A stretch of 63,898 bases of DNA, counting the filler, from Collodictyon triciliatum (lineage: Eukaryota): assembly GCA_043381765.1 (NCBI GenBank). It is 4 parts of 4 records of this genome, joined end to end, with 100 filler letters (N's around TTAATTAATTAA, not from the genome) between each part and the next. Parts side by side here need not be neighbours in the genome. Positions count along the whole stretch, not along the records: positions 40,720 to 61,409 come from JBHJMP010000872.1; 3 more parts are not named here. One strand, given 5' to 3'. Of this stretch, positions 53,425-61,509 are shown in pieces (position 1 is the first letter of the stretch; each line of letters begins with the position of its first letter). The notes below the pieces were generated by a model. It saw only the letters and a program-made list of their open reading frames with translations, ran no database searches and had not been told where the DNA came from. Both the position numbers and the translations under genes were made by a program.

Positions 53425-54278
53425 TTAAGAGTCTGAGTGTCCATGTCCATAAGAGTGGTCGGTATGGGTAGTGTGATGAGCATGATGAGCATCATGGCCT
53501 GTATGCATTGCGTGATGGGCATTATGGATGGCCATGTGAACACCATGCATATCATGTCCCATATGCATTGCGTGATGGAAATTGTGCATGGCTACATGAG
53601 CATCATGTGCACCGTGTCCCGTGTGATGAGCCGTCTCGTTGTAATAATGCCCATAAGGAGAAGTTTGGAAGTGGGAGGGTGTGGATTTAGTATCTTTGAA
53701 TGGTTGGTATGAATAAGAAGCTTCGGTGTTCTGGGCTCCGTGTGCACCAAAAGGAAAATGAGCCAGCATGTTTCTTGTACTTAAATAGTGCTGGATACGT
53801 TGAGCCGCTGCCATCATCATAAAGATGGAGAATACAAGCGTAGCCAAAGTTCCGAATTTACACACAACTCCGTCAGCATCACTCTCACACGTGTTTTCTG
53901 TGACGAACCAGCCCACGATGGAGACGATACTCAATATTATTGATGCATACGCGGTATATATTGCCCTCGCAGCATCCTTGTCTAGTTTGGTGCGACCTAC
54001 GTACAAAGCTAGGATAACAAATGCACCTTTACAAAGAATGGTGATAATAAAGACAAAGACGACAATCTGTCCTTTATCAAAGACATGGCCCAGAAATAGA
54101 GCCACGATGTTTAGAATGATTGAAACTATGCCGAGCCCCGTTACAGTCCTATCCGGGTATGCCTATCAAGTTTCGTTAACTCAATGGTGTTGAAGTATAT
54201 AGTATAAACCGCTTGATTTATATATTATGTGAAGCAGGGGTGCGATTACAGCGAAGGCATGAATGACCACACCACCAT
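53425..54278 (-). CDS. 4-TM membrane protein with His/Met-rich C-terminal tail
   Basis: Four hydrophobic segments, Cys pair between TM3 and TM4, tail HHTGHGAHDAHVAMHNFHHAMHMGHDMH...; main exon starts after an AG acceptor near 54162; start codon inferred. Confidence 0.75.
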
Positions 54279-55271: not shown

Positions 55272-55865
55272 TCAATCATGAGGACCATAAAGGCTACCCG
55301 AAAACTGAATATCTTTGCTCGACATATTGCCTTGGTTTTCAGATAAAGTCGCAGCTATGTATGGTGTATTTTGGTAGGTTTGGTTCGGATAACCATATAT
55401 CAGATTATCTCCATGGTGGATAAGAGGCTGGTGGTTTTCTCTGTTTGTGGTGTCCGCGGTATTTTGTTGTATAATCGCACAAACAATTGATAATACCAGC
55501 GAGAGGATTATGGTGATCGACCCAAGGACAGAGCAAAGCTCATCTTCTTCTCTGGAACTCCCATAGTAACTGTAGTAATAGTTACTTGTTTCGCAATTAT
55601 CTATCCCATAAATGAACCAAATAACCACAAGTATCAAGTTGCAGAGGAACGAGGCGTAAGCCAATGATGTTGATGAGCTTTGCTGCGGGTTTATAGGTTC
55701 ATTTTTTTGTTTAAAACAAACAACCAGGTGAGTTAGCTGAACCAAGAGGCAAAAAACAAACATTACTAAAAGTATTGCCTCACTTTCGAAAATATTCCCT
55801 ATAATACTCGTGATTATCAACAGGATAACACTGGCCGCCGCGCAGTAAATCGGACCATTGCCCAT
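55272..55865 (-). CDS. 4-TM membrane protein (tandem paralog)
   Basis: Four hydrophobic segments, DNCET...ELC loop, C-end FSGSLYGPHD. Confidence 0.8.
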   Translation of the reverse strand: MGNGPIYCAAASVILLIITSIIGNIFESEAILLVMFVFCLLVQLTHLVVCFKQKNEPINPQQSSSTSLAYASFLCNLILVVIWFIYGIDNCETSNYYYSYYGSSREEDELCSVLGSITIILSLVLSIVCAIIQQNTADTTNRENHQPLIHHGDNLIYGYPNQTYQNTPYIAATLSENQGNMSSKDIQFSGSLYGPHD

Positions 55866-57130: not shown

Positions 57131-57979
<849 letters not shown>

Positions 57980-58579
57980 TCTCCGCAAGCTGCTGGATAC
58001 TTGGAGTCCTAGTTAGTTTTTGTGCGTTGATCAGGTCCTAGCGGAAGGAACAGGCCTCTCATATTACTACCCCTTTGAGATTGTCAAAAGTTGTCCGCCA
58101 TCCATTTGTGATAAAAACATCGATTCAACAGAAAAAGCTCACTCAGTGATTCTTACACGGGTATCAGCTATGTCTGTCATTAAACAAATAAATGAATATA
58201 GCCAGAAAAAATAAATACAAAAATACGAAGTAAACACCTTCAACAATCCCATTTGTTTTTATGCTTTTTTTCAAGTTACAGATACCGCAATATTCTGATT
58301 GATTGGGAATTCCCAACCTGTGTGCACTCAAGGGCGAGGAAGAGGCCACCAAGGCAACGCAGCAGATACGAAGGAAATCGCAGCACCCGCCTCGCAGATA
58401 CATGATGATGCCCTATTTTCTAAGAAAGATACTATCACATTCGACCACCTGGATGTTTAATGGCCTGTTATGTTCATGGGAAAATTATGGTCGCAGGTTT
58501 GTTTCCCTAATCCTTCATTCACACTTCTCATGTGCTCCCAATTATCCCATACTGCCTTCTGATTCGAAAATTTTGCTTA

Positions 58580-58699
58580 CTTGAAGGGATATACCATCTT
58601 TCGATTGGTTAACCTGGTTCGCCAGTATCCAAGGTCTCATCACTTCTTTCACAAAGATTATGTAGTGGCGAAGGCTGCCAGGAAAGACTCAACAGCCTT
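58580..58699 (-). ncRNA. Candidate Fanzor omegaRNA scaffold
   Basis: Overlaps and follows the Fanzor stop; visible stems AAGGCTG/CAGCCTT, TCTTT/AAAGA, and GGATA[CTGG-CGAA-CCAG][ACC-A-ATC-GAAA-GAT-GGT]TATCC, then CTTCAAG. Confidence 0.55.
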
Positions 58700-60590
58700 T
58701 TTTTTAGAGGAAGGTGTATGTTGCATATTTTGTAAAATGGAAAGAACTTTCTTGAGTATACTATTAGCGCTGTTAAAGTTCCTTGTCAAGAATACAGTTT
58801 GTTTGCTTTCTGAGCGATTGCATCCTTTACATATGAGACATATAAACACCTTTTTTTGAATTCCCGTTCAGTTTCATATATTCTAGTTCTTTTTCGCAGT
58901 TGCAGCACATCTTTGAGGTTCTAAATTCATCTACACGGACTGTTTCAAAACGTTTGGATGGTATTTTTCGTAATCCTCTTCCGTTTGTTGGCATAAAATG
59001 GTTCATCTGAGATTTTCTGCTCCAGTCCCCATACGCCAGTACAACATCTTTGCCAAATGTCTTTTCGATTCGGTCCATAAACAATTGTTCACTTCTTTTT
59101 GTATTAACATACTGTCTCCATCTCATCTTTCGAAAAGTTACTTGTTCATAAAATCTGGATAGTTCTATCTGGTATTTTGATTCCATAGATACATATTTCG
59201 AAATTTATCATAATCGACCGTGCATGAATTATGTTTACTCAGTTCTGCCTCCAAATCGATCAAAGATACTCTTAATGTCTTAAACTGCTGATTCTCTTCA
59301 AAAGTCATGAGACCAAAAAAAATAACACTTTGAAAATCTGTTTTCATGCATACCCCTGAAGCATTGTACTTTTTTTTTCTCTTTTTTTTCTGGCGCAAGA
59401 GTATTTTGTGATTTTTAAGAGATTTGGTATCATGTTTTCTTTGATGTGCCGTGTAACATAATTTCTTACCTGTCTCATCCACCATCTAAACCAAATTAAA
59501 CTTGCCTGCGTCCACTCCAGCTATATTTTTTCCCTAATAAAGATAACTGCTCTTCGTAAGTTTATCTATATAAACATATTCTTGGGGGTTTTGATTAAAT
59601 TGGAATTTTGAATTTGAAATAGCTTTCTTTTCAAACAATAATGACACCGATAAGCTGTCTGTTTCTATCATGTATGTAAAATTGTAGTCTGTTTGATGAA
59701 AGAGTCTCTTCATTTCAAAGAAGTCATCGCATAGGGTCTCTTTGTATTCTGATATATTCTTCAGTAATAATCTTTTTCCATATAATACTAACAGACCTAT
59801 CGAACATGCAGTATCTAGAGTAATATGACATGGTATATTGTTAGTTCTTATAGAGATTGGTTGAAGCAGCTTGGTTCCAATGTCCTCGAAAATGTGATTC
59901 ATGTAAATTAGACATGGAATGTACTTATTTGGATTGACTTTGGCGTCATATTCGATACCATTTACAATATCGCTGGTTATGATATGGTGCAAATGCGTTA
60001 TAATCCATCTTTTATATTGTTCAGGTATTTCGAGTTTCTTGAATATGGCTTTTTTTAGCTTTCATAACTATGCCTTTTAATAGCATCCGTAATATTCTCA
60101 TCTTTAGGAACTGTTTGATTTATAAAGCGCAGTAACCTCTTTAAAAAATGCTCCTTCATGTTATTATGATAAGCTGCTAGCATTTGCTTCGCCAAGTACG
60201 GCAATACATGAAACAGTCCAACCAACGGAAAGCGCTATTCTCGGGACAAAAGTAATCGAAAATCATTGAAATAAAAAGTCATCATGTCTTTACTCATATC
60301 TGGTTGTTTTTTTAATCTTGTGGGTCTATCTTGTGAAACTACTCCGACTGTCTTTAAAGCGTACAAAAAAATATTTCATCGATTGTTGGGGGTTGTTGTG
60401 ATTTCAATATGTAACATCTTGCAAACAGATAAGTATCGGTAACCAAATTACGACACAATAAAACCGTATCGTTGATTTTGTCATGGTCATCCGCATTCTT
60501 CACAATCGACTTTAAGAGATATTTTCACATTCGGTACTCTGGTTTTACTGACTTCAGATTCTCAGACTCAAGACGTTTTCTTTTCTTCAT
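58658..60590 (-). pseudogene. Fanzor1: Fanzor1 (eukaryotic TnpB-family RNA-guided nuclease), full length but with multiple stops and frameshifts
   Basis: MKKRKR start; LKSIVK...INDTVLLCRNLVTDTYLF; LPYLAKQM...NNMKEHFLKRLLRFIN; QPISIRTNNIPCHITLDT; IETDSLSVSLLF; RuvC-I IAGVDAGK; FRKMRWRQY; VVLAYGDWS; VDEFRTSKMCCNC; CKGC; RuvC-III TRNFNSANSI. Confidence 0.92.
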
Positions 60591-60635
60591 TTTAAAGTCT
60601 TCGTTCTACTTTTTCCTTTGGAAAACTACCAATTT

Positions 60636-60643
60636 TCAATTTT
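60636..60643 (-). promoter_or_regulatory. AAAATTGA octamer 45 nt upstream of the Fanzor ATG (Mimiviridae early-promoter motif)
   Basis: Exact match in the sense orientation; the octamer also occurs by chance elsewhere in this AT-rich window. Confidence 0.3.
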
Positions 60644-61314
60644 AATAAAACTTTAGTCTATTAGTCAATCTAATAAATAAATAAAAAGGCACAAAATCAA
60701 TTCAGGCAAAACTAAGCATCTACCGAGACTTTCAAAGTGTTCGCATTGTGGCAATCAAGCACTCAGTTTATTTATAAGTGATTTGAGATAAAACGCTGAA
60801 AGCTGAGTCGGTGAGTTCGAAAGGACAGCCGTATAGCCATTGCGATTGAAAGTCAACATATCGGCCCCAAACAACATGATTACTGCCGCAAGTGTGGACA
60901 GTATTCTTTTTTGAAATGCATGTTTGGTGGCAGGTTTATAAGGTGGGTTCTGTCTGGCCAAGACAACAGCTTGTTCGTCATTTTTGAATTTTTAATGCGA
61001 AACAGGATATACATAAATGAGAAATGTGAATTAATTACAGGAATAGAGTGAGATTATGTTTTTTTTAACCTTATTATATATACTAATCATACTATTATAT
61101 TATTCAGGTTGTTTCTTGGATTCGTCAAAGCTCTTGCTTTCGTCAGTCCAGATTTAATTCAGTGGTTGTCTGCGCAATAAACTGCTATATGTGGGTACAC
61201 TTTCGTTGTATAAAAATTATTGTGCTTAAATGGGATAAAACCAAGTTCGTCACAGCCTTTGTAATGAAGTTTATCCATTTACATGCTGAATGAGACCTAA
61301 GAAAAAAGGTAATA

Positions 61315-61409
61315 AGAAAAAGAAAAAGAAAAAGAAAAAGAAAAAGAAAAAGAAAAAGAAAAAGAAAAAGAAAAAGAAAAAGAAAAAGAAAAAGAAAAAG
61401 AAAAAGAAA
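61315..61409. repeat. (GAAAAA)n microsatellite at contig end
   Basis: Perfect hexamer run; the same unit occurs at 28229-28330. Confidence 0.95.
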
Positions 61410-61509
61410 NNNNNNNNNNNNNNNNNNNNNNNNNNNNNNNNNNNNNNNNNNNNTTAATTAATTAANNNNNNNNNNNNNNNNNNNNNNNNNNNNNNNNNNN
61501 NNNNNNNNN
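61410..61509. other. Artificial contig linker N44-TTAATTAATTAA-N44
   Basis: Same spacer as at 28129. Confidence 0.97.

Follow-up and report, generated by a model that had tools for sequence, protein, structure and literature searches.

A decaying Fanzor1 copy in Collodictyon triciliatum and the candidate guide-RNA scaffold region at its right end

Results

The stretch under study (positions 58560-58699, minus strand) lies in a 63,898-nt window, by which we mean the whole stretch of Collodictyon triciliatum DNA that was analyzed, and adjoins the remains of a Fanzor1-type nuclease gene. A profile built from 127 Fanzor ORFs was compared with the six frames of the window and matched 60593-58706 (minus) in four frame segments, the best at 1.7e-74. 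The gene and its segments are as follows:

58658-60593, minus: Fanzor1-type pseudogene, profile positions 2-602
60593-60363, minus: Fanzor profile segment
60393-60097, minus: Fanzor profile segment
60076-58706, minus: Fanzor profile segment
59201-58854, minus: Fanzor profile segment in another frame, within 60076-58706

The first-pass annotation of this DNA had described the nuclease ORF as ruined, and the damage bears this out. The frame changes at four places (near 60380, 60090, 59200 and 58850), and the longest frame contains two in-frame TAG codons (59536-59534 and 59488-59486). In addition, the RuvC-III codon at 58780-58778 is AAC (Asn) where Asp is expected, such that a catalytic residue is lost and the motif reads TRNFNSANSI, as opposed to TRDFNSANNI in P0002, the nearest intact relative that we found (648 aa). 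The pseudogene ends in a TAA stop at 58660-58658. P0002 is 52% identical to the window's 298-aa read-through and 67% and 60% identical to two C-terminal pieces. With respect to solved Fanzor1 proteins, P0002 matches GtFz1 of Guillardia theta (9CER) at 2.1e-28, PpFz1 of Parasitella parasitica (9CF0) at 2.7e-24 and SpuFz1 of Spizellomyces punctatus (8GKH) at 3.7e-23, and the window read-through piece P0001 matches 9CER at 4.6e-4. Pfam returned just sub-threshold OrfB_IS605 and Cas12f1-like_TNB matches for the Fanzor protein, and no transposase gene was found in the element, where the profile search gives Fanzor alone. The adjoining gene is homologous in sequence to Fanzor1 across the WED, REC, RuvC and zinc-finger regions, the window copy has no ORF with intact RuvC catalytic residues, and, judged from its sequence, the gene is a dead Fanzor1.

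Several other features were seen around the element. Three minus-strand ORFs adjoining it (53425-54105, 55272-55865 and 57131-57754) encode small, apparently membrane-spanning proteins, and the latter two are alike, both ending in LYGPH(D/N), and look like tandem paralogues. Perfect microsatellites flank the element, with (TTA)x33.7 at 57844-57944 and (AAGAAA)x16 at 61314-61409, the second of which runs into an N gap at 61410; long microsatellites and N gaps of this kind mark the window as eukaryotic DNA. A 24-nt blastn match just past the element (58498-58521, minus) shows 83-90% identity to the MNKGLRKQ codons of about 100 related Fanzor ORFs; it was considered as a second Fanzor fragment, but the protein profile finds nothing there and the match is probably due to chance.

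Related copies of the element were sought as contigs of public runs. Thirteen runs share 5-11% of the words of the stretch, and none has the whole of it. Contigs of four runs were placed on 58200-60800 at a likeness of at least 80%, and 457 were found to fit (3, 64, 18 and 372 per run); no second copy of the element was found elsewhere in the 63,898-nt window. One of these runs, X8, was taken to be RNA by guess alone, and a high-copy repeat sequenced as DNA at low coverage would give the same picture. At 58780, every covering contig that differs from the window carries Asp (GAC; one contig in run X1, 4 in X2 and 15 in X8), so this loss of a catalytic residue is a private change of the window copy. 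Five X8 contigs, amounting to 87.3 of 150 depth, carry an extra base at 59195, a site of frame change in the window.

These contigs also locate the right end of the repeat. Depth is zero in the bins of 58200-58547 in all four runs, and extends without a break from 58548 up to 60800 in three of them. The contigs that reach farthest at 58623 extend 32 or 33 letters more (X2 and X8), ending at 58591 and 58590, and one X8 contig (record 20) runs on past this boundary for a further 41 letters that do not resemble the window. This puts the end of the repeat at about 58590, a position known to about +/-10 nt. It had been proposed that the scaffold ends at 58580 and that copy similarity should drop there. 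A drop does exist, and to this precision the prediction is right, but in two runs it sits at 58590/58591, about 10 nt earlier, and a scaffold end at 58580 is not supported. It follows that a guide would begin about 10 nt earlier than the 58579 previously proposed. At the other end, related contigs still cover 60594-60800, the 200 nt that precede the start codon of the Fanzor gene, so the left end of the element lies beyond 60800. No convincing terminal inverted repeats were found in 58300-61100. The features at the right end are therefore these:

58580-58591, minus: interval holding the right end of the repeated element (contig alignments end at 58590/58591; previously placed at 58580)
58561-58590, minus: unique flank and putative guide source, whose start falls at about 58590 if the copy boundary is used and at 58579 in the first-pass annotation; placed from the boundary and the 14-15-nt extension of SpuFz1

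The structure originally drawn for the flagged stretch consisted of two hairpins followed by a three-way junction. All 29 of its pairs are standard pairs on the minus strand of the window, so that its hairpins and junction are indeed present as letters, and its overlap with the end of the ORF and of the element also holds, as it includes ~13 codons at the end of the Fanzor1 pseudogene together with its stop and reaches up to the copy boundary. Its stability was less remarkable. The hairpin at 58699-58671 folds at -11.3 kcal/mol (z -2.15; equalled by 4 of 200 shuffles), that at 58667-58641 at -1.4 kcal/mol (z +0.39; 119 of 200), and the 48-nt junction at 58632-58585 at -11.5 kcal/mol (z -1.41; 25 of 200). 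For the whole 140 nt, the minus strand gives -29.1 kcal/mol with a z of 0.09, equalled by 102 of 200 shuffles, and the plus strand a z of 0.45. Moreover, the full structure as drawn comes to -17.5 kcal/mol, and the best fold of 58578-58699 to -28.3. Given this z and the distance from the optimum, the stretch cannot be called well paired above chance in the window copy.

The junction stood in part. When 58632-58585 is folded alone, its minimum-energy structure contains the GGAUA/UAUCC closing helix, the CUGG-CGAA-CCAG hairpin and the GAAA-loop stem exactly as drawn. In the context of 58578-58699, however, the closing helix is formed with a probability of 0.07-0.09, and its UAUCC strand (58591-58587) lies at or beyond the copy boundary, which means that it would be flank. 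The CTTCAAG motif at which the scaffold was thought to stop ends at 58580.

The related copies permit a comparison of the window with its family. Leaving aside contigs identical to the window, those that cover 58591-58699 have a different letter, in all or most cases, at six sites, and the family-majority sequence accordingly differs from the window at six well-supported sites (58623, 58640, 58646, 58659, 58669 and 58689). The majority letters were taken from the best 40 of 631 differences between contigs and window, that is, from the differences alone and not from the copies' sequences; among these best 40, none of the six is compensatory. At 58659 the other letter is found in all three X2 contigs but in 10.4 of 29.6 depth in X8, and the change preserves the stop codon (TAA/TGA). 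On comparison with the other contigs, we take these six differences in ~110 nt to be private changes of the window copy.

Introducing the six majority letters lowers the folding energy of 58578-58699 from -28.3 to -38.2 kcal/mol. The majority fold is better than that of shuffled sequences (z -2.93, with none of 200 as good; on repetition z -3.01, with 1 of 300), and among random sets of six transitions made on the window copy, 13 of 2000 reach -38.2 kcal/mol, in a test that comprises six sites from one output and a single folding program. For the majority sequence on the plus strand, the value is -31.2 kcal/mol (z -1.04). These predictions support a family-majority version that is significantly structured on the minus strand, as a guide-RNA scaffold should look. 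Its minimum-energy fold is a series of four tandem hairpins spanning 58698-58593 (~106 nt):

58672-58698, minus: hairpin H1, within the last 13 codons; 11 bp in the majority sequence, three of them G-U
58637-58671, minus: hairpin H2, spanning the stop codon; in the majority sequence an 8-bp stem (58671-58664/58644-58637) and three inner pairs
58611-58636, minus: hairpin H3 of the majority minimum-energy fold, 58636-58632/58611-58615 and 58630-58629/58616-58617
58593-58609, minus: hairpin H4, the GAAA-tetraloop stem, common to the earlier model and the majority fold

Together H1-H4 cover ~38 nt at the end of the ORF, then the stop and a further ~65 nt, and H4, the last structured element before the copy boundary, brings them to within ~2 nt of it. 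They occupy the position of a guide RNA, from the 3' end of the nuclease ORF to the right end of the element. The second hairpin of the earlier model, 58667-58641, corresponds to the inner part of H2. Elsewhere the majority letters disagree with that model, as they break one pair of its second hairpin (C58656-G58646) and one of CUGG/CCAG (G58623-C58616). At 58623 the majority letter is A and the G of the window is private; the pair 58623-58616 is consequently A-C in the majority, and the CUGG-CGAA-CCAG hairpin requires the private G. H3, with which this hairpin competes, is compatible with both alleles.

With respect to the window copy, 33 of the 35 majority pairs remain standard, the exceptions being 58689-58681 and 58668-58640. 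The private A at 58689 leaves an A-C mismatch in H1 with loss of the inner pairs, and the private A at 58640 leaves a C-A mismatch in the middle of the H2 stem, whose pair probabilities fall from 0.8-1.0 in the majority to 0-0.16. Each of these two changes costs ~6 kcal/mol, and the family structure as a whole is weakened by 11.3 kcal/mol on the window copy. The proposal that the stretch is well paired despite its ruined ORF is thus contradicted both by the z of 0.09 and by these breaks in the family stems.

We also examined the wider family. Searches of public contigs with P0002 and P0003 yielded at least 80 metagenome loci and 80 viral loci (L001-L160), which define a giant-virus and freshwater-metagenome clade of Fanzor1; many of the viral loci are giant-virus bins. 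The ORFs of the clade are intact, about 615-635 aa long and, among the matches listed, 36-47% identical to P0002. Their DNA is conserved from the end of the ORF to ~85 nt past the stop and then drops. The conserved part holds a scaffold of ~145 nt that starts in the last ~20 codons (for example, L079:2235-2369 and L027:4828-4951), with one 7-bp hairpin in the last codons, one hairpin across the stop and a long-range helix that ends at a nearly invariant GGTGTA (122 of 129 sequences). The stop-spanning hairpin is absent from part of the clade, and other members have an enlarged form of it that encloses a further, inner hairpin. In an alignment of 129 distinct tails (A3), the four-helix structure comprises 27 pairs with 94.2% of cells paired, as compared with 83.0% in shuffles, none of 500 being as well paired, and 46.6-51.5% when slid, and 17 of the 27 pairs change on both sides. 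This structure was set by hand from the alignment; RNAalifold on the gappy A3 recovered one helix only. A covariance model made from A3 (R1) recovers 98 sites in the 100 loci searched. By their covariation, the clade data show that a structured RNA occupies this position at the ORF end in the wider family.

R1 also gave a second, weaker match at L050:1532-1628 (35.7 bits, E 4.5e-5), on a giant-virus contig ~1.3 kb upstream of that locus's own Fanzor ORF and on the same strand, which may represent a solo or 'ghost' scaffold.

The clade scaffold itself is not recognizable in the window. A search of the window with R1 at default filters gave nothing significant (the top score being 3.5 bits, E 1.4, on the wrong strand), and with filters off the same held for 58300-58900, where 58569-58618 (minus) scores 0 bits (E 9.7). 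Subgroups of the clade keep the scaffold at 48-50% protein identity, and P0002 is 46.5% identical to the L025 subgroup; the scaffold of the window lineage has therefore much diverged or been replaced. Such divergence agrees with passages of PMC11423790 in which Fanzor1 RNAs are said to differ widely past the first stem-loop. A long-range helix like the outer helix of the viral clade, GUCUU(58688-58684)/GAGAC(58638-58634), was tried and rejected, as its pair probability is 0.0 in both versions of the window sequence. The clade motif GTCTTTC...AGACC has one match against 0.25 expected, which was chosen after seeing the window and falls in the loop of H1.

Rfam gave no match at gathering score in the window, chance-level rows alone at E up to 10 in 58450-58850, and nothing but a tRNA on three clade loci. 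Neither Rfam to E 10 nor R1 thus relates the window stretch to a described scaffold family. Nor did viral and genome contigs yield closer relatives with DNA: viral contigs gave two 29% matches to the window's 119-aa piece and one 41% fragment for the window and P0002 alignment, and genome contigs gave one 49% match cut by a contig end. Among metagenome sequences, where at least 80 loci match, closer relatives may exist.

TCAA is the right-end site of IS608 and ISDra2, and the first-pass annotation had carried this analogy over to the window. It is not supported, as copy similarity ends ~10 nt before TTCAAG, and GGTGTA is what terminates the clade scaffolds, of which just 25 of 129 contain TCAA within the terminal 30 nt. 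By these results the element does not look like a TnpA-type element cut after TCAA at its right end.

Discussion

Our preferred reading, to which we assign a probability of roughly 0.7, is that a Fanzor1 element has its right-end guide-RNA scaffold region in the flagged stretch and that this copy of the element is decaying as a whole. The data show the position of the stretch, the copy boundary, a strand-specific excess of structure in the majority sequence and the damage in the window copy. They further suggest that, at the place expected of a Fanzor guide scaffold, the family encodes a structured RNA on the minus strand, which makes H1-H4 a candidate scaffold.

In terms of mechanism, the end of the family ORF, its stop and ~65 nt beyond would fold on the minus strand into the tandem hairpins H1-H4, ending at the copy boundary. 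By analogy with the characterized Fanzor1 systems, as described in portions of PMC10432273 and PMC10530073, the RNA would come from the 3' end of the element. Its hairpins would bind the Fanzor nuclease, as in the accounts of SpuFz1, GtFz1 and others, and, on the same analogy, it would run ~15-20 nt into the flank, with the flank acting as a guide that would direct cleavage of matching DNA next to a TAM. In the window copy, this guide would start at ~58590 and not at 58579.

Alternatively, the family hairpins may be real and serve another purpose, as mRNA 3'-end or stability elements or as transposon-end structures for transposition. This is consistent with the statistical nature of the evidence for structure at the element end, with the lack of detectable similarity to the scaffold of the related clade, and with the lack, in 58300-61100, of a terminal inverted repeat that would link the end to a known mode of transposition. 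We nevertheless consider it unlikely. In every characterized Fanzor1 covered by the excerpts of PMC10432273, PMC10530073 and PMC11423790, a guide RNA lies at exactly this position, and the structured RNA of the related clade is likewise placed with respect to the stop codon. In addition, four G-U pairs and the asymmetry between strands (-38.2 versus -31.2 kcal/mol) favor a sense-strand RNA over a DNA structure.

It is also quite improbable that the hairpins are chance pairings in decaying, AT-rich repeat DNA with no RNA element behind them. The window copy taken by itself would fit such a view, given its z of 0.09 and the fact that its isolated hairpins other than H1 are not significant, and the majority test that points the other way is limited to six sites and a single output of one folding program. 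Against this stand the majority z of about -3, a stability matched by so few of the random six-transition sets (13/2000), and the ending of the four hairpins at a copy boundary that was observed independently.

A third possibility was raised at the outset, namely that the window copy's own scaffold is still functional, loaded in trans by a Fanzor from an intact copy and using the local flank as its guide. Other copies do carry the RuvC-III Asp and the base at 59195, so a source of protein may exist; most family pairs survive in the window copy (33/35); and 134 SpuFz1 ghost loci with conserved guide-RNA regions are mentioned in passages of PMC10432273. We regard this as very unlikely for the window copy, however, in view of the mid-stem mismatches in H2 (C-A) and H1 (A-C), the accompanying loss of 11.3 kcal/mol and an H2 pair probability of ~0.15. 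Six private changes in ~110 nt give no sign of selection sparing the RNA, and no intact copy was seen. More speculative still, and in our estimation highly improbable, is the notion that the family remains active and that its decayed copies form a reservoir of guide RNAs loaded in trans by the nuclease of a few intact copies or by the Fanzor1 of an infecting giant virus, in which case dead copies would still direct cuts beside their own insertion sites.

Returning to the reading of a scaffold region in a copy that decays as a whole, six private substitutions, two of which break H1 and H2, together with frameshifts, stops and the lost Asp, make the window copy most likely a non-functional relic. 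By the predicted folds, its RNA module has decayed along with its gene, which is the opposite of what the title of the first-pass annotation stated. As the RNA part decays together with the gene in a dead copy, the one surprising claim made for this locus is removed.

What remains would be one more eukaryotic lineage in which a Fanzor1 has a structured RNA running across the stop codon up to the right end, a result of little significance for biology at large. There are two by-products, namely a family-level model of four hairpins in a protist lineage and, for a large giant-virus clade that has no Rfam family, a scaffold model supported by covariation, and both scaffold models could help the mining of compact RNA-guided nucleases.

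Comparison with known systems

Passages of PMC10432273 describe a TnpB omega RNA that shares sequence with both the nuclease ORF, at its 3' end, and the element's right end, and takes its guide from the flank. The window element resembles the omega RNAs of IS200/IS605 elements (ISDra2 and IS608) in this general logic alone, that is, in the ORF 3' end, the right end and the flank guide, and unlike them it has no TnpA.

A closer parallel is Spu-1 of Spizellomyces punctatus, which likewise has many copies, some full and others partial or degraded. According to the parts of PMC11423790 and PMC10432273 that treat it, the SpuFz1 RNA consists of a 75-nt scaffold and a guide of 14-15 nt from the flank, and the ORF-less ghost loci reported in the latter are a precedent for the in-trans idea. 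Spu-1 differs in having 30-nt inverted repeats, none of which were found in the window over 58300-61100 (the left end lies beyond 60800), and the SpuFz1 scaffold lies wholly after the stop, whereas that of the window family overlaps the ORF.

The giant-virus clade is related through its proteins (36-47% identical to P0002), and its hairpins within the ORF and across the stop, ending where conservation drops, parallel H1-H4. Unlike the clade, the window lacks the signature motifs TTGATTTTAC and the terminal GGTGTA, and R1 is without a significant match there.

The best solved relative of both P0002 and the window read-through piece is GtFz1. In the passages of PMC11423790 that bear on this, Fanzor1 RNAs are very variable beyond the first stem-loop (75, 90 and 150 nt), and this first stem-loop has 7 bp in the solved RNAs as opposed to 11 in H1 of the window family; the window copy, moreover, is dead, and the RNAs are compared here by description. 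The GtFz1 guide RNA, as portrayed in parts of PMC11423790 and PMC10432273, is 150 nt long and forms four stem-loops, its overlap with the ORF amounting to the last 17 codons, and the candidate scaffold of the window family is similarly built of four tandem hairpins in ~106 nt that begin in the last ~13 codons.
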